Shown: piece by piece, positions 1,896 through 38,455 of the stretch | How the letters are laid out: each line of letters begins with the position of its first letter | Position numbering within the stretch: position 1 is the first letter of the stretch | Assembly (NCBI GenBank): GCA_030637025.1 | Contig: DAOVVV010000011.1 | Location: 1 to 63,701 of the forward strand | Length of the DNA stretch: 63,701 nucleotides | Reading direction: 5' to 3' | From: Clostridia bacterium | GTDB lineage: Bacteria; CBDUZB01; JAGLHV01 | Position numbers and translations under genes: made by a program | Notes under the pieces: generated by a model | Databases searched by the model: none | What the model saw: the letters and a program-made list of their open reading frames with translations, nothing else | What the model was told of the DNA's origin: nothing

Positions 1896-1920
1896 GTTGC
1901 GGTTGAGTTTTTTAAATATT

Positions 1921-2374
1921 TTAAGGCTGTTCTTCAGCTGTTATAGTTACAGTTATAGTTTGTTGTGTTTTTAAAGTAGTACTGCTGGGTGATTCAAACC
2001 TGAACCATAAATATCTATCTTCACTGGGCGGCACATTATATCCTTTAGCCGCTTCCCCCTCGTCATCTTTGGCAAAATCTCCCGTAGAACATACCCGCTG
2101 AGTAGTTCCAATGGCATCGGAAAAACTTCCTCCGATATCAAAATGGCTGGTTTGTGCTGTGGCCGTCTGGAAATTACCGCACATACGGAATTCTTCCGCC
2201 CCGGGAGCAGTGTCAGTAACGCAGGTCCAGCCGGGATGGGAAGCAAGGTGAAGGCAATAGCGTTCGTTGACATCTCCGTCATTGGTAACGGTAATTGAGC
2301 TAATGGAAACATTTGTACTGTTTTTAAGCACTGTTCCGAAATCGCAAGCAGAAGAATCAATGGAGATACTTATG
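1921..2374 (-). repeat. Shared 3' cassette copy 1 (pilin-like domain, about 450 bp)
   Basis: Near-identical DNA and protein (YDFGTVLKNSTN...GAEEFRMCGNFQT...RYLWFRFESP...TITVTITAEEQP) at 5003, 11369, 13549, 14627 and 20056. Confidence 0.95.
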
Positions 2375-4545
2375 TTAGTTCCGGCTCCGCTCCGTGAGGC
2401 CTGGTCGGTATTGGCATAGGCACCCATATTAACCATGTCTCCGTTGTCTTCAGTTTCATTATCATAATATGTATACTCTACACTACCTGAATAAGGGGTT
2501 CCGGCATCAATACAGGGACTGGATTCAGCATCATTAATCCAACCTCCGCTTGTCCAGTGACCGGCAGTGGATTTTAAATGAAAATCACTGCCGGGAGTTA
2601 CGAATTTCGGGTCTTCTGATATTGAATTTGCATCTGGAGATAGATAACAGGCTTGCCAATCAACCAGGGTGGTGTAAGTTTCTGACGGGTTTACCCAAGA
2701 CCAGGTGTAAGCCAACCGGTTACCGGCGTCAACATAAAAAATATTATAATCGGAATCCGGTGCGTTATTATAAAAACCACCATCGCTCAAAAAAACTTGC
2801 TCTATTAGTGTTGAGCAATCATTAACACAGAAGATATTGTTCCGAACAGTAGCTCCTGAAAAGTCCGGCTGGAAGATGGCTGAGATAACATTATAAAATG
2901 TATTATTGTATGCCTGGGAATTTTGGCCTAATCGCCAGATTCCAGCGCTGTTGTGATTAAAATTCCCATTAGTGCTAACACGAATTAAATCGTGAAATAT
3001 GCAGTTACGAATAGTAGTAAAAGAAGCAGCTGCTCCAACCCCATGCGATAGTGTTCCGGTAAAGTTTATTCCTTGAATTGTAACATAAGAAATGCTGATC
3101 AGTAAAGCTCCGTAAGAGTTTTGGCTGTCATAATTAGCAAATAAAACCGTACTGGTATCGTTTTTCCATGTGGGCCTTTCTCCGGTCTTAGAACGGATAG
3201 TTAATGTGTCTGATGAAGTAGTAGTCAGACCGGAAAGAGCTACTCCTTCTACGTAATCAGCACTGTTTTGAATTTGAATATAAAATTTACCTTTACCAGT
3301 TAAATCATTGGATTCATTGGTGCAAAGGTCGGAAAATGCCTGTCCTATCGTTTGCCAGCAGTTATCCAGTACATCAGGATTCCCATCAGGGACACCACTA
3401 TTGTCAGGGGCAGTAGAATTGACATAATAAAAAGTGAAGGACTTAATTATTGCTGCACCTAATTGAACGGCATAAGTGCTAATATCATCACTTGCAGAGG
3501 AAATAGTAACGTCACCCGAAGAAGTGATTTCTATTCCCACGGTAGTATCTTCCACTGCGGAAGGGCTTACATCCAGGATTACATGGATGTAGTTTGTTGT
3601 TGCATATTCTGCAGTTACCGGTGTAGATGAAAAATCAAAACTGGCCTGATTACTGGCATTAAAACTTGTGCTTGTTGCCAGTTGACTTTCGGTTCCGTTG
3701 TAGATACCGTCTGTATCGGTAAATAATTTTATATTACTCAGGACAGCATCGGCATCACAGGTTCCGTATTCGGTAATGGTAATAGTGCTCAAATCACGCG
3801 CTTCGCTGGTGTTATCAGCGTAATATTTAAAGGTCCCGACAACCAGATTGGAGGTACCTTTGCATAACGAATTAACTCCGCTATGTTTAGCAATAGTTAC
3901 CTGTGTTTGCCCCGTAGTGGTATAATCAATTACCAATTTAGGTCTGTAATTATTGTATCCGGTATCTACCGTATAAAATCCGCAGTTATTAAAGGGTTGT
4001 CCGCTTTCAGCATCATTTTTAACCAGTAAACCGTCATTATTAGCCGGTGTATTCCACCAGTCCTGGATTGTGCTGGTAGCCGTATAACTTGCTTCTGCTC
4101 CGTTAGTATCCTGGTAGGTGTAATTACCAAGTTCAGTGGGATTAAAGGTACCCCCGGCAGTAGTCCAGGCGGTTGCATTATCTCTATTATTCCAGCAGGC
4201 GTATCCTGAAGTCCAGTTTTCGGTGAGTTGATAACATCTAAGGGTTAAACCACTACTTCCTACGGTATTTTCATACATATAGAAAGTAGCCGAATTTATT
4301 GAAGAACCAGGGGGAATAATGGAAAGAAGGTCAAATTGGGCAATGTATCTATACACAGTACTATTAGTGTGTCCTATTGCGTATGAAGTTTGTGAGCGAT
4401 TTATAGTAGTTGGGTCGTCACTATCTATTCCGTTATCTGCGGTTGGGTATATGGTCACAATATCTGTTTTGGCATATTCAATCCAGAAAGCAAGATGAAA
4501 AACAATAAAAAGTAATAATAAAACAATTTTTTTGTGTAATTTCAT
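1921..4545 (-). CDS. Secreted adhesin-like protein: DNRLRE/CBM96-like domain + Ig-like + parallel beta-helix + shared C-terminal pilin-like domain
   Basis: Signal peptide. QFDL..IPPGSSINSATF...RPKLVIDY (DNRLRE-like). YNNTF/RNNIF and DFHLKS...SPCIDAG...NMGAY (beta-helix end). The last ~150 aa are shared with four other proteins here. Confidence 0.75.
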   Translation of the reverse strand: MKLHKKIVLLLLFIVFHLAFWIEYAKTDIVTIYPTADNGIDSDDPTTINRSQTSYAIGHTNSTVYRYIAQFDLLSIIPPGSSINSATFYMYENTVGSSGLTLRCYQLTENWTSGYACWNNRDNATAWTTAGGTFNPTELGNYTYQDTNGAEASYTATSTIQDWWNTPANNDGLLVKNDAESGQPFNNCGFYTVDTGYNNYRPKLVIDYTTTGQTQVTIAKHSGVNSLCKGTSNLVVGTFKYYADNTSEARDLSTITITEYGTCDADAVLSNIKLFTDTDGIYNGTESQLATSTSFNASNQASFDFSSTPVTAEYATTNYIHVILDVSPSAVEDTTVGIEITSSGDVTISSASDDISTYAVQLGAAIIKSFTFYYVNSTAPDNSGVPDGNPDVLDNCWQTIGQAFSDLCTNESNDLTGKGKFYIQIQNSADYVEGVALSGLTTTSSDTLTIRSKTGERPTWKNDTSTVLFANYDSQNSYGALLISISYVTIQGINFTGTLSHGVGAAASFTTIRNCIFHDLIRVSTNGNFNHNSAGIWRLGQNSQAYNNTFYNVISAIFQPDFSGATVRNNIFCVNDCSTLIEQVFLSDGGFYNNAPDSDYNIFYVDAGNRLAYTWSWVNPSETYTTLVDWQACYLSPDANSISEDPKFVTPGSDFHLKSTAGHWTSGGWINDAESSPCIDAGTPYSGSVEYTYYDNETEDNGDMVNMGAYANTDQASRSGAGTNISISIDSSACDFGTVLKNSTNVSISSITVTNDGDVNERYCLHLASHPGWTCVTDTAPGAEEFRMCGNFQTATAQTSHFDIGGSFSDAIGTTQRVCSTGDFAKDDEGEAAKGYNVPPSEDRYLWFRFESPSSTTLKTQQTITVTITAEEQP

Positions 4546-4571
4546 TTTTTAAAATCCTCTTTTTAAACTAC

Positions 4572-4881
4572 TTATTCGGCTACTAGAATTGTTCCGGTTA
4601 TTGCTTTTCCGTTAACTTTTAATTGATAGACATAAATACCACTTCTTACTTTTATTCAGTCATTAAATTTTCTATTTCAGCAAAGAGAATTAGTTATTTC
4701 TCCGTGAAGCATATCTGCTACATAAGAGCCGGTTATTTAATGTATCATTAATAATATCGTTGGATATATCAAATTGGCCAAGACAATCATAAGCGTTCTG
4801 ACCATTAGTAAATGCATAACTTTTTATATGCAGAAAAAAAATAAATATAAAAATGAAATAAAATAAAATAATTTTTTTCAT
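4572..4881 (-). pseudogene. Internally deleted remnant of a secreted CTD-bearing protein
   Basis: Signal peptide plus AFTNGQNAYDCLGQFD is joined to DNA at 4572-4730 that aligns with the 3' end of the 581-aa CTD gene (24000-24160; SGIYVYQLKVNGKAITGTILVAE) but out of frame. Confidence 0.8.
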
Positions 4882-5002
4882 TGTTTTAAACTTTATTAAT
4901 TTTGTAAACTTTTAGTTAAACATTTTTATTATGATATTTATTATATAAAAAACCATATTCTGTTTCAATACTTTATTTTTTAAATATAAATATAATTATT
5001 GA

Positions 5003-5460
5003 TTAAGGCTGTTCTTCAGCCGTTATAGTTACAGTTATAGTTTGTTGTGTTTTTAAAGTAGTACTGCTCGGTGATTCAAACCTGAACCATAAATATCTAT
5101 CTTCACTGGGAGGCACATTATATCCTTTAGCCACTTCACCTTCGTCATCTTTAACAAAATCTCCTGTAGAACATACCCGCTGAGTAGTTCCGATGGCATC
5201 GGAAAAACTTCCGCCAATATCAAAATGGCTGGTTTGTGCAGTAGCCGTCTGGAAATTACCGCACATACGGAATTCTTCTGCCCCGGGTGCAGTATCAGTG
5301 ACACAGGTCCATCCGGCAGGGGCAGCAAGGTGAAGAGAATAGCGTTCGTTGACAATGCCATCGTTAGTAACGGTAATGGAGCTGACAGAAACATTAGTAC
5401 TGTTTTTCAGCACAGTTCCAAAATCGTAAGAAGAAGAATCAATGGAAATGCTGATACTAC
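5003..5460 (-). repeat. Shared 3' cassette copy 2
   Basis: Near-identical to 1921-2374. Confidence 0.95.
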
Positions 5461-5917
5461 TTATTTGTGCCCAGGCATTAGTCTTATTTGATATTCCCGA
5501 CCAGTTTAAAGCTCCATCGGCGGTTTTGATGTAGAAATAATAAGTAGTTCCGTCAATTAGACTACCGATGGTTTTATTTTCATTATTTCCGGGTGATGTA
5601 TTCGTTGACCATTGTAATTCGTAAGGCATATCATCCCATATATGAGCAGTTTCGGAAGAATATTTTATGTGATACTGGCCGTTAGTAATATTTCCTGTAT
5701 TTCCATCGTCTCCGGAAGCTGTCCAGGTTAAATCTATTGTACCTCCCGATGTCCCTGTAGAAGCCGACAAATCGGTAATGTCTGCCGGTGGTGTAGTATC
5801 CGGGGTACAGCTTACGGTAAGGGTATTGGGATTAAGGGCATAAATACAGGTAACTAACAGCAAATAACAAATGAGTGCAAAAAGAACAAAAATAATATTT
5901 TTTTTAAAGTTAGTCAT
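5003..5917 (-). CDS. Secreted FN3 + shared pilin-like domain protein (minor subunit)
   Basis: Likely start MTNFKK at 5917 with a GGAG RBS. Signal peptide ends IYA. One FN3 domain (DTTPPADITDL...LTWTASGDDG...TTYYFYIKT), then the shared cassette. Confidence 0.8.
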   Translation of the reverse strand: MTNFKKNIIFVLFALICYLLLVTCIYALNPNTLTVSCTPDTTPPADITDLSASTGTSGGTIDLTWTASGDDGNTGNITNGQYHIKYSSETAHIWDDMPYELQWSTNTSPGNNENKTIGSLIDGTTYYFYIKTADGALNWSGISNKTNAWAQISSISISIDSSSYDFGTVLKNSTNVSVSSITVTNDGIVNERYSLHLAAPAGWTCVTDTAPGAEEFRMCGNFQTATAQTSHFDIGGSFSDAIGTTQRVCSTGDFVKDDEGEVAKGYNVPPSEDRYLWFRFESPSSTTLKTQQTITVTITAEEQP

Positions 5918-5961
5918 TTTTTTTCTCCGGTTTTTAATTTTTTTCTTTTTATATTTCCTCT

Positions 5962-6888
5962 TCAATCCAAGATTACTATCTGATTACGATAGTAATATTC
6001 TACAGACTTCAGTCCAAAAGGACTCATAGTAACAGTGGGATCAAGATATGCTTCGTTTGTTTCAAAGAGATATATTAGAAATAGCGAAGATCCAGTATTA
6101 TCTTCCCATCCTGCGTACCATGTTGTAAAAGAATAAGAAAGAGTAGTACTTCTGGCTTTTCTTGATGCAGAGGTAAACGTGCTGATGCTGGATGTAATAG
6201 GCCAATAAAAACCACCGGTTGTGCTATAGTAAAAAATCGTGTTATCTATCGCAGTATCAATTAATGATTGTGAAGAAGTAGGGAGCTGTGACCATCCGGT
6301 ATAAGAGCCTTTTGTTATCGGAGTAATACATGTATCAAGTGCACTTGAATAATCACTTTCGGATGTTCCATACCCTACATTTTTATAATATAGATCTCCG
6401 TCGGCTAAGTAAATATATCCTGCAGGAAGACCTGCCTGTAACTTAACGGCTATATTTTGAGTTAAGGTAGCTGTTGTATTGGTCGGAGAGTTAAGTTCCA
6501 GATCAAAAGTCTGGGTAGTGCCTTTAGGTAACTCTGAATTTATTGTTTGAGTAGAAGCAATGGAAGTAAAGGAGACCAACTGACCTCCTTGAGCCTTTAA
6601 ACAGAATATTTCATTTCCTGCTGCATCCCCTTTAGTCCAATCCTGGGAGTTTTCACACCAGAGTTCCATTACCGAAGAATGGGAAGACCATCCACCAAAA
6701 TAACCACTGGAGGTGGAAGTGGAAAAATTAAGTCCAACCCTTCCGAAATCATAGGTAGTTGTTGTCACGGATACCTGCCATTCCCAGGCATAGCTTTTTT
6801 GAGTAAGTATTGTGTAAAAAAGCAATCCAATAAATAAAATCAATAAATAAAATCTTATAAATGAAATATTTTTTTTAAAGTTACTCAA
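5962..6888 (-). CDS. Secreted minor subunit B (divergent N-terminal pilin-like domain + variable C-terminal domain)
   Basis: TTG start and signal peptide. The first ~190 aa are nearly identical to 7880-8794. YDFG, W..GDAAGNEIF and SPTNTTATLTQNI motifs parallel the shared domain. Confidence 0.65.
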   Translation of the reverse strand: MSNFKKNISFIRFYLLILFIGLLFYTILTQKSYAWEWQVSVTTTTYDFGRVGLNFSTSTSSGYFGGWSSHSSVMELWCENSQDWTKGDAAGNEIFCLKAQGGQLVSFTSIASTQTINSELPKGTTQTFDLELNSPTNTTATLTQNIAVKLQAGLPAGYIYLADGDLYYKNVGYGTSESDYSSALDTCITPITKGSYTGWSQLPTSSQSLIDTAIDNTIFYYSTTGGFYWPITSSISTFTSASRKARSTTLSYSFTTWYAGWEDNTGSSLFLIYLFETNEAYLDPTVTMSPFGLKSVEYYYRNQIVILD

Positions 6889-7852
6889 TTTTTTTCTCCG
6901 ATGCGGATTTAATTTTTATTCGGCTGAAAGCATCATTTCCTTCATCAATAGAGTGAACGAAAATTAAACATTCTAACTTTTTATCAATAAACTCTTTTGT
7001 TTTTGGTAGATAAATTTTCAAGGTTATTGTTTGCGATTCTTTTCCCTTTATTTTTAATTCGGATAGAGTTTCTTCAAGACAAATACCCTGAGCAAAGCAT
7101 TTGGCCCATTTGTGATAGCGATCCTGATGCAGCCAATTAAATTCCCGGCTATGAGGAATAAATTCCCCCTGCGGAATTCTCCACGGACTAATGGTTCGTA
7201 CCCGGTAGAAATGCTCTTCTTTTGTGTTGTTATAAAGTTTGACCTGTGCCTGAACGGTAGTACCTAAAGGTAAGTTTTTAAATTCTATCACACTTGGAAT
7301 AAGAGTGAATGTATTTAATAATTTTTTATTTAGAGAATTTATTTTTATATCTGATTTGCTTTCGGTTTCTATTTGATAACGCGTTTCCATATTTAATCCG
7401 AACAATTCTCCTTTTTCTTGTTTAGTACTTACAATAATGCCTACTTCCCAATGCCGGTTGTAGTATTCTTCCTTTTTAGGAATTTTAAAGTAAAGAGGAA
7501 TTTCTTTTTTCTGCCGGGGTTTTAAGGTAATTGTATTTTTTTCAAACCAGACCCAGGAGGTATTTGGGATAGCTTTATATCCCTGAAATGTCCTTTGAGG
7601 TTTTTTAATGGAAAGCATAAATGTATGCGGTAAATCACTGTTGTTTTTAATACAAAAATTTATTTCTGACATCTGTTTTAAACTGATTTTTTTCCCTAAA
7701 GGAAGATTTTCTATGAGTTGAATATGGGGTTGGATACCTATCCCTGTTGCCCGGATAAATGAAACGTTGATGAAAAAAGTGCCCAATATAAAAACCCCCA
7801 ATGAGATGAATTTTTGGTAAAATCGGGATTTGGTTTTATTTTGTTTGGTCAT
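6881..7852 (-). CDS. Exported tandem-Ig chaperone-like protein 2 (PapD/DUF916-like)
   Basis: Signal/TM segment followed by two internally similar beta domains (IKNNSD...SWVWFEKNTITLKPRQKKEIPLYFKIPK). Paralog of 27309-28226. Confidence 0.55.
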   Translation of the reverse strand: MTKQNKTKSRFYQKFISLGVFILGTFFINVSFIRATGIGIQPHIQLIENLPLGKKISLKQMSEINFCIKNNSDLPHTFMLSIKKPQRTFQGYKAIPNTSWVWFEKNTITLKPRQKKEIPLYFKIPKKEEYYNRHWEVGIIVSTKQEKGELFGLNMETRYQIETESKSDIKINSLNKKLLNTFTLIPSVIEFKNLPLGTTVQAQVKLYNNTKEEHFYRVRTISPWRIPQGEFIPHSREFNWLHQDRYHKWAKCFAQGICLEETLSELKIKGKESQTITLKIYLPKTKEFIDKKLECLIFVHSIDEGNDAFSRIKIKSASEKKIE

Positions 7853-7879
7853 TATATCTCTCCTTGTTATCTGTTTACT

Positions 7880-8794
7880 TCAATCAAGAATTACTATCTG
7901 ATTACGGTAGTAAATTTCGATAGTTTCTTGTGCGTACCCAACCATCTCGCTGGTATTCTCTATTGCTCTTAATAACTGTGTTAGATAAATGGAAGAATCG
8001 CTATTATCTTCCCATCCTGCGTACCATATTGTATGCCACTGAGTTAGTCTAGTAGTAGTATTTACTTGTCTTGATGAGGATGAACTACTAAAAGAGGATG
8101 TAACAGGGAAATAAAAACCACCAAGGATACTGTAGGAATATTTAGTCTGAGGTCCAAATCCTGGGAAGGAAACTCTAACTGATGAAGAATAGGTATCCAT
8201 TTGGCTCCACCCTGTATATGTATTCTTCATTAACGGGGTAATACAGGTATCAAGTGCACTCGAATAATCACTTTCAGATGTTCCATATCCTACATTTTTG
8301 TAATACAGGTCTCCATCGGCTAAATAAATATATCCTGCAGGAAGCCCGGCTTGTAACTTAACGGCTATATTTTGAGTTAAGGTAGCTGTTGTATTGGTCG
8401 GAGAGTTAAGTTCCAGATCAAAAGTCTGGGTAGTGCCTTTGGGTAACCCTGAATTTATTGTCTGAGTAGAAGCAATAGAGGTAAAGGAAACCAACTCGCC
8501 GCCTTGAGCTTTTAAACAGAATATTTCGTTTCCTGCTGAATCTCCTTTTGTCCAATCCTGGGAGTTTTCAGACCACAGTTCCATAAGTGAAGAATGGGAA
8601 GACCATACACCAAAATAACCACTGGAGGTAGAAGTCGAAAAATTAAGCCCAACCCTTCCGAAATCATAGGTAGTTGTTGCCACGGATACCTGCCATTCCC
8701 AGGCATAGCTTTTTTTTGGGAAAAAGGAATAAAAAAGCAATCCAATAAATAAAATCAATAAATAAAATCTTATAAATGAAATAATTTTCTCCAT
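7880..8794 (-). CDS. Secreted minor subunit A (paralog of 5962-6888)
   Basis: Signal peptide ending SYA. Same architecture and the same C-terminal YYRNQIVILD as the paralog. Confidence 0.65.
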   Translation of the reverse strand: MEKIISFIRFYLLILFIGLLFYSFFPKKSYAWEWQVSVATTTYDFGRVGLNFSTSTSSGYFGVWSSHSSLMELWSENSQDWTKGDSAGNEIFCLKAQGGELVSFTSIASTQTINSGLPKGTTQTFDLELNSPTNTTATLTQNIAVKLQAGLPAGYIYLADGDLYYKNVGYGTSESDYSSALDTCITPLMKNTYTGWSQMDTYSSSVRVSFPGFGPQTKYSYSILGGFYFPVTSSFSSSSSSRQVNTTTRLTQWHTIWYAGWEDNSDSSIYLTQLLRAIENTSEMVGYAQETIEIYYRNQIVILD

Positions 8795-8814
8795 AATTTT
8801 AAGTTCCTTTTTTT

Positions 8815-11250: not shown

Positions 11251-11368
11251 CTTAATTCCTTTTATAAAAGAGCTTTGTTTAAAGTGGATTAACAATTATA
11301 TTAAATATCCAGGTTTTTTTCAAAGATATTTTCATATTTGTTTAATAGTAACATCTTTAGTTTTTTAT

Positions 11369-11790
11369 TTATGGCTACTCTTCAGCAGTTATAGTTACAG
11401 TTATTGTTTGTTGTGTAGTTAAGCTTGTACTTGTAGGTGATTCAAACCTGAACCATAAATATCTATCTTCACTGGGATGCACATTATATCCTTTAGCTTC
11501 TTTCCCTACGTCATCTTTAACAAAATCTCCGCTGGTGCATACTCCGGAGGTGGTTCCTATAGCATCGGAAAAACTTTCCCCAATATCAAAATGTCTGCTT
11601 TGTGCCGTATCTAGTGACACATGTTCAACCAGCAGGGACTGCCAGCTGTAAGGAATATCGTTCGTTAACATTTCCATTGTTAGTAACGGTTAAAGAGCTG
11701 ATAGCAGTAGTGGTACTTTATTTAATTACCGTTACAAAATTATAATTGGAAGAATTTACCGAAACACTTAATGCAATTCCGGTTTTTGTT
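11369..11790 (-). pseudogene. Decayed orphan copy of the shared pilin-like cassette (copy 3)
   Basis: Translates as ALSVSVNSSNYNFVTVIK*...ERYSLQLAVPAG*TCVT[deletion and frameshift]TAQSRHFDIG...TITAEE*P*. It has three in-frame stops and has lost the PGAEEFRMCGNFQ segment. Confidence 0.9.
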
Positions 11791-11803
11791 TGGGACGAAT
11801 AAT

Positions 11804-13510: not shown

Positions 13511-13548
13511 TTTCTTTGTCCTCCTTTAAGGGTAATACAAAACTTTGT

Positions 13549-14005
13549 TTATGGCTGCTGTTCAGCCGTTATAGTTACTGTGATTGTTTGTTGTGTAGTT
13601 AAGTTTGTACTTGTTGGTGATTCAAACCTGAACCATAGATATCTCTCTTCACTGGGCGGCACATTATATCCCTTAGCCGCTTCCCCTTCGTTGTCTTTGG
13701 CAAAATCCGCATTGGAACATACGCTTTGTGCGGTTCCTATAGCATCGGAAGAAGATACGGCAATAACAAAATGACTTGCTTGTGCCGTAGCCGTCTGGAA
13801 ATTACCGCACATGCGGAATTCTTCTGCCCCGGGTGCAGTATCAGTGACGCAGGTCCAGCCGGCAGGAGAAGCAAGATTTAGTGAATATCGTTCGTTGACA
13901 TTTCCGTCATTAGTGACAGTTGTAGAACTGGCAGCTACATTTGTACTATTTTTTAGAACTACGCCAAAATCATATCCGGAAGAAGAGATGCTTATACTAA
14001 TGATG
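13549..14005 (-). repeat. Shared 3' cassette copy 4
   Basis: HFVIAVSSSDAIG subtype, nearly identical to copy 5. Confidence 0.95.
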
Positions 14006-14592
14006 GTGCCAAATATCCAGTTGGAATTGTTATTTCCTGAATTTGTAGAATTAGAGCAAGTTACAGTATTATAAAGAGCATCGGAATCTTTTACATCTAC
14101 ATAATCTACTGTTTGGTTCCCGTTGGGGAAGGATATATACCATTTTTGGGTATCAACAGAAGATCTTAAGTTAATAAGATTTCCGGTTGCACCGTTTAAT
14201 GTAAAAAGATTAGTTACTGTCTGGGTTGAACCGGTTGTAAAATATATTGTTTTCCCTGCTGTTTGGCAAACAAGATTATAAAAAGTAGTGTTGCCGAGGA
14301 GAGTAGATGCGGTTGTATTATTCTCAAAGGTTACTGTTGATGTTCCTGCATTAAAGGTGCCTTGATTTTCCCAGTTTCCAGAAAGAAAAAGTTGGGACTG
14401 AAAACAATTTATTGCACCACTATTGATTTTTATACTGCCACTGTTTCCTGCAATACTGAGTTCAGTGTTATTATTGAAAGTTACGGTTGCTCCATTGATT
14501 TCAAAATTAGCATAAAGTGGACGCACAAAAAACAAGAAAACGATAAAAATTAAATATTTTAGCTTTTTTTCGAAATCTATCATTTTTTTCAC
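13549..14592 (-). CDS. Secreted beta-helix-like domain + shared pilin-like domain (putative adaptor)
   Basis: Signal peptide, then GNWENQGTFNAGTSTVTF...TTFYNL...NSTNSGNNNSNWIF, then the shared cassette. Confidence 0.7.
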   Translation of the reverse strand: MKKMIDFEKKLKYLIFIVFLFFVRPLYANFEINGATVTFNNNTELSIAGNSGSIKINSGAINCFQSQLFLSGNWENQGTFNAGTSTVTFENNTTASTLLGNTTFYNLVCQTAGKTIYFTTGSTQTVTNLFTLNGATGNLINLRSSVDTQKWYISFPNGNQTVDYVDVKDSDALYNTVTCSNSTNSGNNNSNWIFGTIISISISSSGYDFGVVLKNSTNVAASSTTVTNDGNVNERYSLNLASPAGWTCVTDTAPGAEEFRMCGNFQTATAQASHFVIAVSSSDAIGTAQSVCSNADFAKDNEGEAAKGYNVPPSEERYLWFRFESPTSTNLTTQQTITVTITAEQQP

Positions 14593-14626
14593 CTTTTCAC
14601 CCGGGGGTTATCAGCAACATTTCTGT

Positions 14627-15080
14627 CTACGGCTGCTGTTCTGCCGTTATAGTTACAGTTATTGTTTGCTGTGTTTTCTGTGTAGTGCTGCTCGGTGATT
14701 CAAACCTGAACCATAAATATCTATCTTCACTGGGCGGCACATTATATCCTTTAGCTGCTTCCCCTTCGTTGTCTTTGGCAAAATCCGCAATGGAACATAC
14801 GCTTTGTGCTGTTCCTATAGCATCGGAAGAAGATACGGCAATAACAAAATGACTTGCTTGTGCGGTAGCCGTCTGAAAATTACCGCACATACGGAATTCT
14901 TCTGCCCCGGGGACAGTATCAGTGACACATGTCCAGCCGGCAGGAGAAGCAAGGTTTAGTGAGTATCGTTCGTTGACATTTCCGTTATTAGTAACGGTAA
15001 TGGAGCTGGTAGCAACGTTGGTACTGTTTTTCAGCACTGTGCCAAAATCGTATCCGGAAGAAGAGATACTTATACTAATA
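14627..15080 (-). repeat. Shared 3' cassette copy 5
   Basis: Nearly identical to 13549-14005. Confidence 0.95.
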
Positions 15081-18000
15081 GTCGAACCGGAATCTTCATA
15101 TTTTATTATCTTGGCTTCAGAAGGGATAGCATTAGCTAAAACATAGAGTAGATAATAACCCTGAGGCAAATCAGCAGGGGTGGTAAAAGATATTTGGGTA
15201 TCGGCATTTGCCCATTCACCATTGGTCATCGGGTATACGCTGGTAGAAACATCTATGAAATAACCGGATGGACAGGTAAAATTATAATTACCGGAATTCA
15301 TAAATTGCAGATAAACTCTGGGATAATTTGTCGGTGAATTCATTTGACAGTATGATCCACCTGTGGCTTGCGAATAGGCTTTAAATCTTGTACCTGTAAG
15401 ATCATAGGAAGTATTGGGATTGACTTGTTGAGGATAAGTAGAAATGCTGGGCTGCATAATAGATGCATACGTTGTATAATCGTATTCGGTATATAAAGCA
15501 GATTCGCAAGAATCAAGGGCTCCGCTGCTATTTTCTCCTCCCGCTATCAAAATTTTGCCGTTGGGAAGCAAAGTGGCGGTATGATTTTTTCTTGATGTAT
15601 TTAAGGAAGCAGTTGTAGACCAACTACCGGAAGCAGGATCATAAAGTTCACAGTTAGATAAATAATTAGTCCCATCAGTACCTCCGCTGACCAGAACCTT
15701 ACCGCTGGGGAGTAAAAGAGCAAAATGCTCATAGATAGCCGTATTTAATGAACCGGTAGTAGACCAGGTGGCAGTAGTTGGATTGTATAATTCACACACA
15801 GCACTGGCGGCACTATTAATGATTCCACCGGTTACTAAAACTTTGTTGTTAGGTAGTAAAGTGGCAGTGTGGGATTTTTTTGTAGTACTCATTGAACCGG
15901 TAGTAGACCAGGTTGTTGCTGAAGGATTGTATAGTTCACAGGTAGAAAGAGAGCTACTACCGTTATCACCTCCGGTTATTAAAACCTGACCGTTAGCCAG
16001 CAGGGTGGTTGTATGTGTATCTCTTAATCCACTTAATGAACCGGTAGTAGACCAGGTTGTTGCCGAAGGATTGTATAATTCACAGGTAGAGAGAGGTCCG
16101 GAGCCGTTATTTCCGCCGGAAACCAGAACCTTGCCGTCACCAAGCAAGGCAGCTGAATGAGTATATCGGTTTGAATTCATTGAGCCGGTAGTAGACCATG
16201 TACCTGCTGAAAAATCGTAAAGTTCACACGTAGAAAAATAGTTTGTACCATCATATCCACCGGACACCAGAACCTTGCCGTTGGCCAGTAAAATAGGCAG
16301 ATGTTGACTTCTTGTTGTATTCATTGAATTTGTCGTTGACCAGGTTCCTGCAGAGGGATCGTAAAGTTCGCAGGTAGAAAAATAACTTGTTCCGTCGTTT
16401 CCGCCGGTTACCAGGACTTTTCCGTTGGGAATCAGGGTAGCTGTATGCATAAATCTTTCGGTGTTGAGAGAATTACTGGTTGACCAGGCGGCTGATGAAG
16501 GGTCGTACAATTCACATGAGGAATGGCGAACGCTATCATTATATCCGCCCACAGTTAGTACTTGATTGTTGGGAAGAGAGATGGTTGAATGATAATATCT
16601 TGCTACGGACATCGCATCTGTGGTGGACCAGGTACCGCCGGAGGGGGTATATAGCTCACAGGTAGAATGGGGGGTAGCACCCATCCAATCGGTATCGTGT
16701 CCGCCGCTGACTAATAATTTCCCGTTAGGAAGTAAGGTGGCGGTATGAGCACGCCGTTTAGCGGACATTGGTGATGTGGTAGACCAGGTACCGGTAGAAG
16801 GATCGTATAATTGACAGGTAACGACACTGCCCCCAAACAGACCGAGATATCCCCCAGCAGCCAGGACTAATCCGTTGGGAAGCAGGGTTGTCGTGTGCTC
16901 AAGTTTTCCCTGTGACATAGAATTAGTGGTAGTCCATGTTCCTAAAGCAGGGTCGTATATTTCGCAAGTAGATAAAAAGGTGGTAGACTGGCTAATATAT
17001 CCGCCGGTTACTAAAACTTTTCCGTTGGGAAGTATGTTTGAATTTTGACCCATTCTCTGAGTGGACATAGAATTGGTAGTAGACCATGTGCCCAGGGACG
17101 GATCGTATATTTCGCAGGTGGAAACGGTTTGATTTGTACCCATGTTCCAACCACCCGCCACTAAAAGTTTTCCGTTGGGAAGTAAAGTGGGCATATGGGT
17201 ACATCTTACTGCGGACATAGGATTGGTAGTAGCCCATGTGCCCAGGGAGGGATTATATAATTCAGCAGTGGATAAAGAGGCACTGCCATCTATTCCGCCG
17301 GTTACTAAAACTTTTCCGTTGGGAAGTAATACGGCTATATGTTCTTCCCGGGTAGTAGACATAGAACCGGTCGTGCTCCAGGTACCCATAGAGGGGTCAT
17401 ACAGCTCGCAGGTAGAGAGAACTGCAGCGGCATTATTGCGTCCCCCGGTAACCAATATTTTTCCATTAGGGAGCAGGGTGGTAGTGAGATAGTCTCTTGT
17501 ACTACTCATTGTACTATCTGTAGGTTGTTTCCATACAGGGTCGACTAAAATAGGAAACTTAAGTCTGTCAAAATTAAAGCAAAGGTGTAAAATGGCTGAA
17601 GGTTGTATATTACCAAACATATCTTTTACATTAGGTAGTTTTTTAAGAATAAAAAAACCTTTTCGTTTCTGTCCACAGATATCAATAATTTCCGGTCTAC
17701 TCAAAATTAAAGTAAGATTACCTTTTTTATCCAATATTTGCAGATTCCCTTCTTTGCCTAGGAAGAAAGAATTTGCTTTTCCCTTAAGTGATAATTGGTA
17801 ACTGAAACTTATTTCCTTATCCGAAAGGGTGGGTTTTATTTTTTCAACCGGATAGACGGTTTTCTCTACAGGGGGCGAGTGTATAAAGAGCATTTCCTCT
17901 ATTCCCTGTGCAGTGGCTAAATAAAGCACATCTGTTCCGGGATAGGCAGAATGATAGCTGATGATACCGGCTTCTACTTGGGTTTTGACGGATAAACAAT

Positions 18001-20029
18001 TAACCGGATTATGGTATATTTGTGGTATTATTTTTATCTCATATTCATTAGTAGATAAATATATTGGCTGCCCATAAGACTGTGGAAAGAAGGAGTCAAT
18101 AAGGGAATATTTGTTTTTTCCTATCCGGTATCCTTCAATTCCATCCAGTTTTATTTGCTGATGGGTGGATTGTAGGGCTTCTGTAAATCTTTCTTTAATC
18201 TGGGGAAAATTTTTCGGAATAAATTTAGTTAAGTTATTGTTTTCTTTTTTCAAAGTTTGCAGATTTCCGTTGATTATTTTATCCCATTCTCTCTGTGCCT
18301 CTTTTCTTAAACCAATTGACTGATAAAAAAGTCCGAGATTATAACATGTTTTAATTATTTCAGGGTCTTGTTTGATAATCTCTATACAACTATTTATTGC
18401 TTTTTTCATATTTCCTGAATAGGCATAGGCACAAGCAAGGTTATTTTTTACCTCTAAATTGCCGGGTTTTAATAAGGATGCTTTCTCCAGTATTTTCAAT
18501 GCTTTTTTGTAGTTACCGTTATTAAAACAGGCAATACCCAGATTATGCAAACCTTCAAAGAAATCCACTTTTTTTTGAACGGATTGGCGGTATTTATTTA
18601 TTACTTGCTTTGTATGTCCTCTGTTTGCCCAAATCATGCCTAAATCATTCAATGCCTGTGCATATTGGGGGTCTATTTTAAGGCATAGTTCAAATTCTTC
18701 TATTGCTTTATCAAATTCTCCTTTTGATGCATAAGCTCTGCCCATACCATAATGGAGGGTAGCTGATTGTGGACAGGTTTTTAAGTTTTCAATGACAAGT
18801 GTTCGGTGGTTTTGCCATGTTTTATTGCGATGGATAGTTAAAAAGGAATAAATCAAAATTAACGGTATAAAGGTAAAAAATATAGCATATTGAAGTTTTT
18901 TATTTTTTAAATTAGTTAAAATTACAGCAAGCACTAATCCGAATCCAATAGTAGATAAATATAAAAACCGTTCATTGATTATTGTTCTTATCGGAATGAT
19001 GTTGGATACAGGAAGAAGGTTGATAAAGAAAAAAAGTATGCCAAAACTAATTATAGGTTTTCTTTTTCTGATTTTCCAGGCTGTATAAACTAAACCGGAT
19101 AATATTAGTAATGAAAATAAAACTTTTGGCTCAAATATACTATGACTTACCGGGAAAAGATATTCAACACTTAAAGGGTAAGGAATAAACATCAATTTAA
19201 GATAATGGAAAAATCCTTTGGACATGGTTAAAAGAGTAGGATATAATCCACCGGCCCAATATGTAGTTTGAGATAACCGTCCCAGTAATAAGTAACGGGT
19301 TGCTACAAATATAGCAGTAATAAGAAAATAAGGTATTGTATAACCGTAATTAAATAGAAAAGAAAAGTATCGGTTATTTTTTTCTTTGTTATTTAAAACA
19401 GATTGAGTGAGAAAAAGATACTCGTATAATAAAATAACCAGGGGAAAACTTACTGCCATTTCTTTGGAAAGCAAGGAAAAGGAAAAAAATATAAGGGATA
19501 GATAGTAACAAAACAGATTATTAATTTTACGGAATTTTATGTATAAAATTAAACAGGATAAATAGAATATGGAAAATAGTAAATTACTGCGTTGTGATAT
19601 CCATGCTACCGATTCGGTTTGAACCGGGTGAGCAATGAAAATGAGACTGACCATCAAAGCAATGCTTTTTTTTTTAATAAGCAAAAGCAGTAAAAGATAA
19701 ATAAGTAAGCCATTGAGTAAATGAAGTATTATATTAGTAAAATGAAACGTTTTAGGGTTGAGTCCGGAGAAGTGGTAATTAAGGGCATAGGATAGTGTAG
19801 TTATTGGCCGCCAGACATCACAATTCATTTGTGAATTGTGGGATGTGGTATTTCTGTCAATTAAAAATCGTAAGGGGTCATTGAGAGAGCGGATAGCAGG
19901 ATTAAGAACGATAAAAGTATCATCGTCATAAAGAAAGTCATTTTTAAGGGTATTAGCATAAATTGAAAAACCTAAAATAATAATCAGCAGAGGGAAAAAA
20001 AAATAAGTTAATTTGTTTTTTTTAGTCAT
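14627..20029 (-). CDS. 1800-aa fusion: TMTC-like GT-C + TPR + linker domain + 14 Kelch repeats + shared pilin-like domain
   Basis: NDFLYDD, WRPITTLSY, HPVQTESVAWISQR, SKEMA and ERFLYL (TMTC-like). TPRs, then FPILVDP. Fourteen repeats of T-LLPNGKVLVTGG...CELYDP..GTW, then the shared cassette. Confidence 0.85.
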   Translation of the reverse strand: MTKKNKLTYFFFPLLIIILGFSIYANTLKNDFLYDDDTFIVLNPAIRSLNDPLRFLIDRNTTSHNSQMNCDVWRPITTLSYALNYHFSGLNPKTFHFTNIILHLLNGLLIYLLLLLLIKKKSIALMVSLIFIAHPVQTESVAWISQRSNLLFSIFYLSCLILYIKFRKINNLFCYYLSLIFFSFSLLSKEMAVSFPLVILLYEYLFLTQSVLNNKEKNNRYFSFLFNYGYTIPYFLITAIFVATRYLLLGRLSQTTYWAGGLYPTLLTMSKGFFHYLKLMFIPYPLSVEYLFPVSHSIFEPKVLFSLLILSGLVYTAWKIRKRKPIISFGILFFFINLLPVSNIIPIRTIINERFLYLSTIGFGLVLAVILTNLKNKKLQYAIFFTFIPLILIYSFLTIHRNKTWQNHRTLVIENLKTCPQSATLHYGMGRAYASKGEFDKAIEEFELCLKIDPQYAQALNDLGMIWANRGHTKQVINKYRQSVQKKVDFFEGLHNLGIACFNNGNYKKALKILEKASLLKPGNLEVKNNLACAYAYSGNMKKAINSCIEIIKQDPEIIKTCYNLGLFYQSIGLRKEAQREWDKIINGNLQTLKKENNNLTKFIPKNFPQIKERFTEALQSTHQQIKLDGIEGYRIGKNKYSLIDSFFPQSYGQPIYLSTNEYEIKIIPQIYHNPVNCLSVKTQVEAGIISYHSAYPGTDVLYLATAQGIEEMLFIHSPPVEKTVYPVEKIKPTLSDKEISFSYQLSLKGKANSFFLGKEGNLQILDKKGNLTLILSRPEIIDICGQKRKGFFILKKLPNVKDMFGNIQPSAILHLCFNFDRLKFPILVDPVWKQPTDSTMSSTRDYLTTTLLPNGKILVTGGRNNAAAVLSTCELYDPSMGTWSTTGSMSTTREEHIAVLLPNGKVLVTGGIDGSASLSTAELYNPSLGTWATTNPMSAVRCTHMPTLLPNGKLLVAGGWNMGTNQTVSTCEIYDPSLGTWSTTNSMSTQRMGQNSNILPNGKVLVTGGYISQSTTFLSTCEIYDPALGTWTTTNSMSQGKLEHTTTLLPNGLVLAAGGYLGLFGGSVVTCQLYDPSTGTWSTTSPMSAKRRAHTATLLPNGKLLVSGGHDTDWMGATPHSTCELYTPSGGTWSTTDAMSVARYYHSTISLPNNQVLTVGGYNDSVRHSSCELYDPSSAAWSTSNSLNTERFMHTATLIPNGKVLVTGGNDGTSYFSTCELYDPSAGTWSTTNSMNTTRSQHLPILLANGKVLVSGGYDGTNYFSTCELYDFSAGTWSTTGSMNSNRYTHSAALLGDGKVLVSGGNNGSGPLSTCELYNPSATTWSTTGSLSGLRDTHTTTLLANGQVLITGGDNGSSSLSTCELYNPSATTWSTTGSMSTTKKSHTATLLPNNKVLVTGGIINSAASAVCELYNPTTATWSTTGSLNTAIYEHFALLLPSGKVLVSGGTDGTNYLSNCELYDPASGSWSTTASLNTSRKNHTATLLPNGKILIAGGENSSGALDSCESALYTEYDYTTYASIMQPSISTYPQQVNPNTSYDLTGTRFKAYSQATGGSYCQMNSPTNYPRVYLQFMNSGNYNFTCPSGYFIDVSTSVYPMTNGEWANADTQISFTTPADLPQGYYLLYVLANAIPSEAKIIKYEDSGSTISISISSSGYDFGTVLKNSTNVATSSITVTNNGNVNERYSLNLASPAGWTCVTDTVPGAEEFRMCGNFQTATAQASHFVIAVSSSDAIGTAQSVCSIADFAKDNEGEAAKGYNVPPSEDRYLWFRFESPSSTTQKTQQTITVTITAEQQP

Positions 20030-20055
20030 ATTTGTTTTCTCTTAAATATTTTATT

Positions 20056-20506
20056 TTACGGCTGCTCTTCAGCCGTTATAGTTACGGTTATGGTTCGTTG
20101 TGTTTTTTGTGTAGTACTGGTGGGTGATTCAAACCTGAACCATAAATATCTATCTTGACCGGAAGGAACATTATATCCTTTAGCTGCTTCTCCTTCGTCA
20201 TCTTTGGCAAAATCTCCTGTAGAACATGCCCGCTGAGGGGTTCCGACAGCATCGGAAAAACTTCCTCCGATATCAAAATGGCTGGTTTGTGCGGTAGCCG
20301 TCTGGAAATTACCGCAAAGCCGGAATTCTTCTGCCCCGGGAGCAGTATCAGTAACGCATGTCCAGCCGGCAGGGGCAGCAAGGTGAAGAGAATAGCGTTC
20401 GTTGACTCCTCCATTATTGGTGACAGTAATGGAACTTACGATGATATTGGTACTTCCTTTAAGTACTGTGCCAAAATCATAAATAGAAGAATCGATAGAA
20501 ATATTT
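20056..20506 (-). repeat. Shared 3' cassette copy 6
   Basis: Near-identical to copies 1 and 2. Confidence 0.95.
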
Positions 20507-23775: not shown

Positions 23776-23811
23776 AAAAATTAAAAAACCTCCCAATATT
23801 TACAAATAATA

Positions 23812-38380: not shown

Positions 38381-38455
38381 TTTTTTCCTTTTTTGATTTA
38401 TCATTATAATGTTTGAATTTCAGTCAAAAGTTTAATGTTCTTCTTTGACCTATAT

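Follow-up and report, generated by a model that had tools for sequence, protein, structure and literature searches.

A shared C-terminal domain with interchangeable cargo points to a probable donor-strand pilus in an uncultured diderm bacterium

The window, the whole stretch of 63,701 nucleotides that we analysed, comes from an uncultured sediment bacterium whose genome (G000) is a metagenome bin of 77 contigs, 97.8% complete. A repeat search found one direct-repeat family of six copies of ~450 nt each (families D1 and D3), starting at positions 1921, 5003, 11369, 13549, 14627 and 20056. The copies form a shared 3' cassette of ~453 nt on the minus strand, carried by five intact genes and one decayed relic. 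In a MAFFT alignment the similarity runs from the codons for ISISI(D/S)SS to the stop codon exactly, and the flanks are unrelated between copies; only g1 and g6 also have paralogous sequence farther upstream. The first-pass annotation had described six near-identical cassettes; the six-copy family holds, but "near-identical" does not, as pairwise identity is 75.1–89.8% in DNA and 73.5–92.7% in protein. The two subtypes that it distinguished, HFDIGGSF...AEEQP and HFVIAVSS...AEQQP, are both present, the latter in the adjacent genes g4 and g5.

All cassette-bearing genes in the window lie on the minus strand, and the different cargo assigned to each copy at first pass was mostly borne out by Pfam. 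Cassette 1 (1921–2376) makes up the last 151 codons and the stop of g1 (1921–4545, 874 aa), whose cargo matches the beta-helix families Disaggr_repeat and Disaggr_assoc. Its sister, cassette 2 (5003–5458), ends g2 (5003–5965, 320 aa), which has a signal peptide and a sub-threshold Pfam match to fn3, and whose cargo has a paralogue in g7 on contig C7. Cassette 3 (11369–11771) is the relic, without cargo and with a 50-nt deletion and in-frame TAA, TGA and TAG. Cassette 4 (13549–14004) ends g4 (13549–14592, 347 aa), with cargo outside any Pfam family, and cassette 5 (14627–15082), nested within the g4 cassette clade, ends g5 (14627–20029, 1800 aa), in which a polytopic membrane N-terminus is followed by TPR and 13 Kelch stretches (propellers). 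Cassette 6 (20056–20511), which groups with its orthologue in a second genome of the genus (G003), ends g6 (20056–23796, 1246 aa), with CARDB, fn3 and a beta-helix region paralogous to that of g1. A seventh intact cassette lies on contig C7 (locus L006), two diverged copies lie on contig C58, and remote versions occupy the N-termini of two proteins of 304 and 308 aa.

Repeats in a 77-contig metagenome bin could in principle arise from assembly or binning, and pieces of the Logan contigs do break near cassettes. However, the copies differ at 10–25% of their bases, enough for short reads to separate them, which makes an artefact unlikely. Independent Logan contigs, from runs X1 and X3, span each of the 30 bins across 1800–21500, mostly at ≥99% identity, and their pieces span several cargo-cassette and cassette-intergenic junctions (for example 13756–14717, 14834–16214 and 18347–20150). 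Orthologous genes ending in the cassette also occur in three other genomes. We therefore regard an artefactual origin, which the first-pass annotation had named as one outcome that would undo its reading, as highly improbable.

The genes around the cassettes, also on the minus strand, include what may be the remaining parts of one system. A stand-alone subunit, P0001 (26196–26795, 199 aa), consists of a signal peptide, an N-terminal strand (SEDIYCTVLIQ) and a cassette domain with 45% amino acid identity to the cassettes; it is conserved across the four genomes of the genus and is a putative major pilin and strand donor. Beside it, a 581-aa protein (24000–25745) has FN3 domains and a CHU_C-type C-terminal domain and has no acceptor domain. 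Its mature N-terminus, ALSEDIYCTVMI, is a near-repeat of the pilin strand, which suggests a donor-only base or anchor subunit. On the other side of the pilin gene lies a conserved gene for a secreted 305-aa protein with two Ig-like domains (27309–28226), which has a cleavable-looking N-terminal signal and no hydrophobic C-terminal segment or membrane helix, and which we take as a putative periplasmic chaperone. Directly upstream of the two-Ig gene in 4/4 genomes is a gene for a Wzy_C (O-antigen-ligase-like) membrane protein with a TPR tail (28230–30362), possibly involved in glycosylating the Ser/Thr-rich subunits. The order Wzy_C-TPR, two-Ig protein, pilin, 581-aa donor-only protein is the same in all four genomes of the genus.

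A second set of related genes, again on the minus strand, lies between cassettes 2 and 4. A 323-aa protein (6881–7852) is a paralogue of the 305-aa two-Ig protein. The 308-aa protein (5962–6888) begins with a remote, shortened cassette (hhalign probability 92%, E 5.4e-7) and has an additional domain at its C-terminus; repeat families D5, D10 and D11 link it to its 304-aa paralogue (7880–8794). Directly downstream of the relic cassette is a gene for an 826-aa polytopic membrane and TPR protein (8815–11295). The cargo of cassette 3 would be expected where a 568-aa fibre-like protein with a C-terminal Peptidase_S74 intramolecular-chaperone domain (11804–13510) now sits. Across five genomes, 9/11 matches to the two-Ig family lie ≤2 kb from a match to the cassette family; one of these genomes, G017, is related to G000 only at the level of the domain Bacteria. 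The two-Ig family (n=26) has only sub-threshold matches to Ig families, with fn3_5 in 21/26 members and WxLIP_PGBD (PF06030) in 3/26 at a best E of 0.001. PF11797 is absent among the 25 families listed for it. No PapD_N or PapD_C (PF00345/PF02753) match is listed for the family or for the 305- and 323-aa proteins, and the sub-threshold matches of all of these are to other Ig-like families (Cep192 domains, MSP, fn3_5).

We then asked what kind of domain the cassette encodes. No Pfam or NCBIfam family matched it, including the T9SS C-terminal-domain families Por_Secre_tail and CHU_C, and it is an uncharacterised Ig-like domain of ~150 residues. A profile built from nine copies found at least 1,308 clusters at 50% identity with a cut-off of E≤1e-3, and 580 with one of E≤1e-10. 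In 147 of the 151 proteins examined, no more than 10 residues separate the end of the domain from the C-terminus. Fifty-three of the 151 are ≤230 aa and the others are fused forms of up to 4,536 aa, with cargo that includes FN3, CBMs, C25 and S8 peptidases, GH113, FG-GAP and beta-helices. An AF2 model of cassette 2 has a pLDDT of 96.3 for the domain folded alone, a value that does not demonstrate an open groove. Foldseek returned no match in the PDB at E≤1e-3. Its leading rows are mostly donor-strand pilins or chaperone-usher subunits (AbpA, CsuA/B, CfaB, TasA, FimG, PapE, CS17), headed by AbpA (7ueg, E 5e-3), and in a wide VIA search donor-strand pilins gave the longest alignments (106–124 of 151 residues, Z 5.6–6.9). 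These matches are middling (Z ≤7.7), and generic PapD-like or MSP Ig domains score as well as the pilins do.

The strand that precedes the domain separates the two kinds of family member. A full alternating-hydrophobic strand is present in the 13 residues before the domain in 32/51 stand-alone members vs. 6/102 fused ones, and g1, g2, g4, g5 and g6 score only 0–2 of 4 for it. When the cassette and the mature pilin were predicted as a complex, the score was 0.93 (median of three runs), vs. 0.00 for the best of three controls. The mark used for this score is reached by 58/80 solved complexes and 2/110 mismatched pairs, counts that apply only roughly here, as our own alignments were used. The runs agreed in ≥98% of contacts, with a partner pLDDT of ≥85. 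The predicted interface brings residues 35–48 of the pilin, its N-terminal strand, against residues 2–18 and 135–147 of the cassette. The predicted residue pairs (144:39, 143:40, 142:41, 141:42 and 140:43) imply antiparallel pairing with the last cassette strand, the canonical geometry of strand exchange. Solved chaperone-usher complexes known to the model may have shaped the score, which speaks for likeness and not for binding.

Taken together, we think it probable that the cassette is a pilin domain that accepts a strand, part of a chaperone-type donor-strand pilus whose tip cargo is interchangeable, in a diderm host. The domain would take a beta-strand from a neighbouring subunit, and P0001 would polymerise head to tail by inserting its N-terminal amphipathic strand into the next subunit (donor-strand complementation). 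The products of g1, g2, g4, g6 and g7 have the proposed acceptor domain and lack a donor strand, so each could only start a chain, placing its beta-helix, FN3 or CARDB cargo at the distal end of the fibre. The 581-aa protein, with a donor strand and no acceptor domain, would end and anchor the chain, and the conserved two-Ig secreted proteins of 305 and 323 aa are candidate chaperones. The proposal made at first pass, of a constant docking domain with swappable cargo, is supported by the C-terminal position in 147/151 proteins, the diversity of cargo, the missing strand in fused forms, the predicted docking and the differences in cargo and gene order among four genomes. Several points count against a pilus, among them the confident fold of the lone cassette, the middling structural matches, the limits of the complex score and the sub-threshold Ig matches of the two-Ig family. 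G000 encodes BamA, but the usher (PF00577) had no match at E≤0.01 in this 97.8%-complete genome, although the control matched in E. coli and Deinococcus, and the fibre would need another route across the outer membrane. The cassette of g5 lies behind a polytopic membrane domain, a misfit with a position at the distal tip. Finally, C25 and S8 peptidases and glycoside hydrolases are carried by secretion-signal domains as well.

In a different reading, the cassette is a sorting or anchoring module that does not polymerise, either a new C-terminal secretion signal of the T9SS kind or a binder of the outer membrane, LPS or S-layer, and the stand-alone copies are small surface proteins or decoys. 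T9SS C-terminal domains are likewise Ig-like and form the very C-terminal end of secreted proteins whose cargo is highly diverse and extends to peptidases and glycosidases, and the C25, S8, GH113, CBM and FN3 cargo of the cassette recalls theirs. A SprA-like ORF of 1,734 aa on contig C73 (four collinear sub-threshold matches), the CHU_C-type domain at the end of the 581-aa neighbour, the absence of an usher from the search of G000 and the ability of the cassette to fold alone (pLDDT 96) fit this reading as well. PorP/SprF had no match in G000, a search made uninformative by a control that matched nowhere. In contrast, the cassette matches no T9SS C-terminal-domain family or other Pfam or NCBIfam family. 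T9SS C-terminal domains are about half as long as the cassette. Little or no cargo is present in the 53/151 members of ≤230 aa, and a sorting function leaves the conserved extra N-terminal strand of the abundant stand-alone members unexplained. The predicted docking of the pilin strand on the cassette (0.93 vs. 0.00) also favours a strand acceptor. On balance, we consider a sorting module unlikely and the pilus the better reading.

How the cassettes came to be so alike is a separate question, and the first-pass annotation attributed it to ongoing gene conversion or recombination, with new cargo now being captured onto a constant domain. Several observations are in line with this. Adjacent genes with unrelated cargo hold sister cassettes, and these are the most similar pairs (g1-g2 at 89.8% and g4-g5 at 88.5% nucleotide identity), closer to each other than to their G003 orthologues (85.2% and 82.6%). 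The tree supports (g1,g2) at 96/94 and (G003 g4 orthologue,(g4,g5)) at 86/98 and 92/99. Mosaicism, which the same annotation had suggested looking for in an alignment, is detected across 12 cassettes (PHI p=0.0005), but not within the six intact G000 copies alone (p=0.26). The nearest neighbour shifts along the cassette, and the cassettes of orthologues are mosaic. For the g4 orthologues, dS is 0.21 in the cargo and 0.50 in the cassette. Logan contigs of related strains contain weak joints, such as 14626->20057 in run X6, which skips exactly g5.

However, the divergence between copies is large. Cassette pairs within G000 have a dS of 0.44–1.19, the closest two (g1-g2, g4-g5) at 0.44–0.48 and all others at 0.53–1.19, which equals or exceeds the dS of 0.18–0.74 between orthologues of different species. 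There are no long identical tracts: the best GENECONV-like runs, at p=0.001 among 66 pairs, lose significance on correction. Where residues are invariant, codon identity stays even over the length of the cassette (0.45–0.77), and the g6 cassette groups with its G003 orthologue (96/92) and not with its genomic neighbours. With dN/dS at 0.08–0.20, which accounts for the likeness at the protein level, the dS values indicate that purifying selection, not ongoing gene conversion, keeps the cassettes alike. We thus judge ongoing conversion to be distinctly improbable: the cassettes are old paralogues whose likeness is maintained by strong purifying selection at the docking interface, and exchange between neighbours is rare and old, accompanied by gain and loss of modules. 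The suggested comparison of relatives bears this out, as cargo set and gene order differ among the four species of the genus. The g5 gene was not found in the three sister species, and the relic cassette 3 is the positional orthologue of the cassette of an intact 876-aa gene in G001, which precedes the orthologue of the 826-aa protein gene. Over the span of speciation, cassettes have now and then been copied into an adjacent gene, and entire cassette-ended genes have been gained, lost and reordered.

Does the proposed fibre resemble any described system? In classical and archaic chaperone-usher pili (Fim, Pap, Csu, CFA/I), the tip adhesin is a two-domain protein whose C-terminal pilin domain lacks the N-terminal extension, and the partner is a soluble two-Ig periplasmic protein, as is proposed here. 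Csu, Cfa, Fim and Pap subunits are also among the best, if weak, structural matches (E 9e-3 to 0.1; Z 5.6–6.9). In their pilins the N-terminal extension of a neighbour completes the Ig fold, an arrangement that for the cassette is predicted by the docking model. Unlike in those pili, no usher was found in G000, no PapD_N match is listed for the two-Ig proteins, the cassette domain falls outside the SCPU and fimbrial Pfam families, and many putative tip genes share one locus, with cargo across the family that includes enzymes and giant proteins. In TasA/CalY fibres, archaeal bundling pili (AbpA), threads, cannulae and Tafi, too, strand donation links Ig or jelly-roll subunits that Sec exports (PMC12337348 among others), and the longest structural alignments to the cassette are those with TasA and TLP-1. 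However, the scores are weak (E 5e-3, Z 5.8–6.9), and as far as the accessible texts go these are homopolymeric matrix fibres without a repertoire of cargo-fused acceptors.

The proposed pilus would be analogous to the WxL and Pam pili described in 2026. In the available portion of its description, the Pam pilus is a donor-strand-exchange pilus of uncultured bacteria, exclusive to CPR and without an usher (PMC13278184); its tip is one domain that only accepts a strand, its FN3-type anchor (PamR) only donates one, and it has two-Ig proteins that resemble chaperones. [quoted passage not shown] The WxL (Elr) pilus, from Enterococcus faecalis and other Bacillota and reported in the accessible text as confined to Bacillota, has a small pilin in which a single incomplete Ig-like domain follows an N-terminal donor strand (bioRxiv 10.64898/2026.10.17.759780). 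As far as that text goes, its large adhesins vary in their N-terminal payload, lack a donor strand and all finish in this domain; a protein that only donates is proposed as fibre end and anchor, a two-Ig partner gene adjoins the pilin gene, the donor strand runs antiparallel to the last acceptor strand (here predicted only), and rare members have the domain at the N-terminus, like the 304- and 308-aa proteins. The WxL distinction between small pilins with the strand and adhesins without it is found in our family (32/51 vs. 6/102, with 147/151 C-terminal). There is, however, no detectable sequence relationship: Pfam WxL (PF13731) matched 0/63 members of the cassette alignment (A3) at E≤1 and nothing in G000, with the control matching in Lactococcus, and WxL as the nearest named cluster in the Atlas, at 0.82, is a lead only. 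The cassette host is a diderm (BamA), and its candidate anchor has a CHU_C-type C-terminal domain in place of LPxTG. The WxL chaperone, DUF916/DUF3324 (PF06030 and PF11797), has a C-terminal transmembrane helix in the part of its description available to us, which the 305-aa protein lacks; the WxLIP study, accessible in part, is tied to the same system (PMC10599100). The 305-aa two-Ig protein is analogous to that chaperone, not a member of its family.

Thin surface fibres joined by strand swapping have only recently begun to be recognised as a pilus type beyond the classic model bacteria. Tentatively, and with somewhat less confidence than we place in the pilus itself, the locus could be the first recognised outer-membrane-bearing member of a third large, unnamed family of donor-strand pili of the chaperone type, beside WxL and Pam. 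Such a family would comprise at least 1,308 clusters, all from uncultured organisms and all labelled "hypothetical", in which a 150-residue acceptor mounts adhesins, lectins, peptidases, glycosidases and giants of up to 4,500 residues, without an usher, and in which cassette-ended genes are traded between species. The g5 product, a membrane glycosyltransferase-Kelch protein, hints that in such a family the socket could also link the fibre to a protein of the inner membrane. If so, the logic of pilin, acceptor-only cargo, donor-only anchor and two-Ig partner would have a large unannotated counterpart in sediment diderms, and how a fibre without an usher crosses the outer membrane would become a testable question. 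It would also allow a function to be assigned to more than 1,000 families of "hypothetical" proteins, and would account for the display of enzymes and giant proteins on the surface of these organisms. The locus also illustrates the evolution of a docking domain, with strong purifying selection on the interface, rare exchange between neighbours and turnover of modules between species.

A direct-repeat search of window positions 1-24000 returned a single family of six ~450-nt copies, starting at 1921, 5003, 11369, 13549, 14627 and 20056. All six are on the minus strand at the 3' ends of ORFs, five intact and one decayed, which bears out the repeated 3' cassette described in the first-pass annotation. 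In the alignment, similarity runs from the codons for 'ISISI(D/S)SS' to the stop codon, and the flanks are unrelated except in g1 and g6, where paralogy extends over another ~1.1 kb upstream. The intact copies end five minus-strand genes: g1 (1921-4545; 874 aa, with Disaggr_repeat and Disaggr_assoc cargo), g2 (5003-5965; 320 aa, with fn3 cargo below the cut-off), g4 (13549-14592; 347 aa, with no Pfam family in its cargo), g5 (14627-20029; 1800 aa, with a polytopic membrane N-terminus followed by TPR and 13 Kelch stretches) and g6 (20056-23796; 1246 aa, with CARDB and fn3 cargo). Pfam agrees with most of the cargo labels assigned earlier. The decayed copy, c3 (11369-11771), carries three in-frame stops and has lost 50 nt to a deletion; it begins ~30 nt past the stop codon of the preceding gene and is therefore without cargo. 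A whole-genome search added a seventh intact cassette (contig C7), fused to FN3 cargo that is paralogous to g2; a 199-aa version that stands alone (26196-26795, minus strand, 45% identity); and two diverged, cargo-fused versions on contig C58. At this second locus (L009, L011), the diverged cassette-ended proteins of 363 and 312 aa adjoin genes of the two-Ig family, and one of the two-Ig N-domains forms part of a 529-aa fusion protein. Inside the cassettes, other frames hold ORFs of 108-129 aa (1971-2360, 5053-5394, 20088-20414 on the minus strand and 20155-20508 on the plus strand) that recur because the cassette does; these are most likely not genes.

The g5 product is unusual in that one ORF joins a polytopic membrane N-terminus with a 'YDDD' motif, which we take to be GT-C/TMTC-like, to TPRs, ~13 Kelch repeats and the cassette; the Kelch repeats are made of 144-150-nt tandem units (repeat families D2 and D4). 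Because its cassette comes after a polytopic membrane domain, g5 misfits a tip role. Speculatively, it might tether the fibre to the inner membrane, or be a processed product.

The cassette codes for a ~150-residue Ig-like domain that matches no family in Pfam or NCBIfam. NCBIfam likewise has no family for the putative pilin (the stand-alone subunit), the two-Ig proteins or the 308-aa protein, its sole row being a phage tail tube model at E 0.008, below that model's cut-off, which was taken as chance. A profile built from nine copies matched 1,308 representative clusters at E≤1e-3 (580 at E≤1e-10). The nearest Atlas clusters carry the label Elusimicrobiota. Architecture was sampled in the best 150 family matches plus the window's subunit. 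In 147 of these 151 members, at most 10 residues separate the end of the domain from the C-terminus; the members range widely in size (53 at 230 aa or shorter, 21 above 1,500 aa). When 67 fused members were scanned, 40 had recognisable cargo (E≤1e-5) and 27 had none; cargo in the family includes fn3, CBMs, C25 and S8 peptidases, GH113, FG-GAP, ice-binding-like, dockerin and beta-helix domains. The close relatives of the stand-alone form (87/87) and the relatives of the two-Ig protein (39/39) are unnamed or 'hypothetical', and come from metagenomes or unclassified bacteria. Literature searches found nothing on a donor strand in Elusimicrobia and, for donor-strand pilins in uncultivated or metagenome-assembled organisms, nothing on the cassette family among the matches listed.

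The AF2 model of the cassette, from a 63-sequence alignment, is a confident beta-sandwich (pLDDT 96.3). Foldseek returned no match to this model at E≤1e-3; its leading rows were mostly strand-donation pilins (AbpA, CsuA/B, CfaB, TasA, FimG, CS17, PapE). In the VIA wide search, generic PapD-like/MSP domains came out on top (Z 7.7) and pilins next (Z 5.6-6.9), yet the pilins gave the longest alignments (106-124 residues). Against PDB sequences, neither the pilin profile (best E 1.4) nor the two-Ig profile (best E 0.72) gave a hit. The pilin likeness of the predicted fold is a lead rather than proof.

Stand-alone members carry, after the signal peptide and ahead of the domain, a strand such as 'ADITVTVTV'. 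Within the 13 residues preceding the domain, all four alternating positions are hydrophobic in 32 of 51 stand-alone members versus 6 of 102 fused ones. The window's cargo genes have donor-strand scores of 0-2, and its stand-alone subunit carries the strand 'SEDIYCTVLIQ'. The 581-aa protein (24000-25745, minus strand) starts, after its signal peptide, with ALSEDIYCTVMI and is without an acceptor domain. The predicted complex of the g2 cassette with the mature subunit scored 0.93 (median of three runs) versus 0.00 for the best of three controls, with between-run contact agreement of at least 98% and a partner pLDDT of at least 85. Of 80 solved complexes, 58 reached the mark used for this score, as did 2 of 110 mismatched pairs; these rates are rough since alignments of our own were used. 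The predicted interface sets subunit residues 35-48 against cassette residues 2-18 and 135-147, and the predicted residue pairs (144:39, 143:40, 142:41, 141:42, 140:43) imply antiparallel pairing with the last strand of the cassette. A pass in complex prediction can stem from likeness to solved complexes, and the result supports a strand-donation mechanism by analogy rather than demonstrating binding. The plug-in docking domain proposed in the first-pass annotation is supported by architecture, family-wide statistics, gene linkage and this controlled complex prediction.

The same annotation had read the likeness of the copies as ongoing gene conversion, which we found unsupported; the pattern is one of purifying selection, with neighbours only rarely exchanging sequence and whole modules turning over. 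Cassette pairs share 75.1-89.8% DNA identity and 73.5-92.7% protein identity, with dS of 0.44-1.19 and dN/dS of 0.08-0.20 (Nei-Gojobori). Orthologues of the same locus in this genome (G000) and its congeners G001 and G003 have dS of 0.18-0.74; cassette dS matches or exceeds this, and the copies are therefore as old as the species or older. Their likeness comes mainly from removal of non-synonymous change. Along the cassette, invariant residues show even codon identity (0.45-0.77 per 15-codon block, 12 cassettes). No long conversion tract is common to the copies. A 33-nt stretch invariant among the window copies was rejected as a shared conversion tract or nucleotide-level element, given the even codon identity across the 12 cassettes, a pattern compatible with the codon bias of a 35% GC genome.

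An IQ-TREE analysis of 17 cassette sequences from three genomes gave a star-like tree with three supported groups: g1 with g2 (96/94), g6 with its G003 orthologue (96/92), and the G003 g4 orthologue with the pair g4 and g5 (86/98 and 92/99). The g6 cassette, grouping with its orthologue, thus evolves as an ordinary orthologue. The two adjacent-gene pairs g1-g2 and g4-g5, with unrelated cargo, have sister cassettes that are closer to each other than cross-species orthologues are (89.8% vs. 85.2% and 88.5% vs. 82.6%). Between g4 orthologues, the cassette (dS 0.50, dN 0.127) has diverged more than the cargo (dS 0.21, dN 0.058), and the nearest neighbour of the G003 g4-type cassette switches along its length. 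Over the 12 intact cassettes from three genomes, the PHI test gave p = 0.0005, also when limited to third positions; on the six intact G000 cassettes alone it gave p = 0.26. A GENECONV-like run test had a best p of 0.001 among 66 pairs, not significant after correction. The sister cassettes, the cassette/cargo contrast, the switch of nearest neighbour and the PHI result over three genomes are signs of past exchange.

Gene order was compared in four genomes of a single genus, the sole ones of the phylum in the collection compared. All four share a core order of a Wzy_C-TPR membrane protein, the 305-aa two-Ig protein, the stand-alone subunit and a 580/581-aa protein, beyond which gene content and order vary. 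In G000, the core is followed by g6, g5, g4, an S74 fibre gene, c3, an 826-aa membrane-TPR gene, the genes for the 304-, 323- and 308-aa proteins, g2 and g1. In G003, it is followed by the g1 orthologue and the start of the g6 orthologue, with the end of the latter, the g4 orthologue and the S74 gene on a second contig; in G001, by a 541-aa cassette gene with other cargo, an 876-aa g1-type gene and the orthologue of the 826-aa gene. Searched with a 251-aa part of g5, G001, G002 and G003 (97, 89 and 86% complete) gave no match. Cassette-cassette recombination may account for the absence of g5 from G003, where the g6 orthologue ends in AEQQP plus TAG, as g5 does; however, this orthologue is followed by an unrelated spacer of ~330 nt, and other cassettes also have the AEQQP ending. 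The spacer 3' of c3 is homologous to the G001 spacer 3' of the 876-aa gene's cassette, and c3 is therefore the remnant of a gene that lost its cargo. The region is covered by Logan contigs from runs labelled as cold-seep or marine-sediment metagenomes (30/30 bins in runs X1 and X3); in related strains, these contigs show a few weak joints. One of these, in run X6, joins 14626 to 20057 (depth 4.6, side 22 letters) and skips exactly g5, the arrangement present in G003. Being drawn from contigs, which put absence and frequency beyond reach, and having short sides (20-45 letters, depth 3-10, 90% likeness threshold), such joints are only hints.

The product of the S74 gene (11804-13510), 568 aa long, contains 'GNVGIGT'-type repeats and ends in a Peptidase_S74 intramolecular-chaperone domain, a domain of phage tail fibres and endosialidases. 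Within the gene, a 156-nt stretch is duplicated at a distance of 783 nt (D8). The gene occupies the exact expected place of the c3 cargo and is kept in G003.

The 305-aa (27309-28226) and 323-aa (6881-7852) two-Ig proteins, both on the minus strand, are homologous (E 4e-12) and internally duplicated; both carry a signal at the N-terminus and lack a hydrophobic helix at the C-terminus. Among 26 members of their family, Ig matches are sub-threshold only (fn3_5 in 21, FixG_C in 14, WxLIP_PGBD in 3, MSP in 3). Nine of 11 two-Ig family matches lie within 2 kb of a cassette-family match, in five genomes that include G017, which has only the domain Bacteria in common with G000. In the 304-aa (7880-8794) and 308-aa (5962-6888) proteins, also on the minus strand, the N-terminal domain is a remote version of the cassette (hhalign probability 92%). 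Their genes with upstream regions form a duplication (5917-6564 and 7835-8479; D5, D10, D11; 72-86% identity, 1.9-kb spacing) that brackets the 323-aa gene. Upstream of the pilin core, all four genomes keep the Wzy_C-TPR protein (28230-30362), a Cache-HAMP-SpoIIE phosphatase (30409-31905), an OmpA-propeller protein (31920-33911) and two ~670-aa TPR proteins with weak DUF6340 matches (33949-35961, 36362-38404).

Further along the window, a c-di-GMP-I riboswitch (39054-39146, plus strand; RF01051, 51.6 bits vs. a gathering score of 35) precedes six small genes (39359-40671; 50-75 aa) with a 'KGQ..(I/L)EY' motif, presumably the Flp-type prepilin motif, followed by RcpC, a secretin and a TadA-type ATPase (40803-46608). 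From its gene content, the 39054-46608 region looks like a Tad/Flp pilus operon under c-di-GMP control.

The closest description is that of the WxL (Elr) pilus, for which a preprint of October 2026 describes a small pilin with a donor strand, a donor-only LPxTG terminator and a membrane-anchored DUF916/DUF3324 chaperone, and which it reports only from Bacillota (bioRxiv 10.64898/2026.10.17.759780). The Pam pilus has a similar logic and is reported to be exclusive to CPR bacteria (PMC13278184). The cassette system matches the logic of both; however, it was negative in the sequence tests for WxL, and a soluble-looking two-Ig protein is found here in contrast to the membrane-anchored chaperone there. 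The host is a diderm, with BamA present in G000, and no match to an usher was found in that genome. A SprA-like 1,734-aa ORF on another contig (C73:5465-8752; L035, L036) has four collinear SprA matches (best E 2.6e-17), each below the 200-bit cut-off. A PorP/SprF search had no match, but its control also matched nowhere. For the CHU_C-ended 581-aa protein, and perhaps also for the fibre, the SprA-like protein is a candidate way across the outer membrane. We file the system as a probable chaperone-type donor-strand pilus with modular tips, outside the WxL, chaperone-usher and T9SS families.
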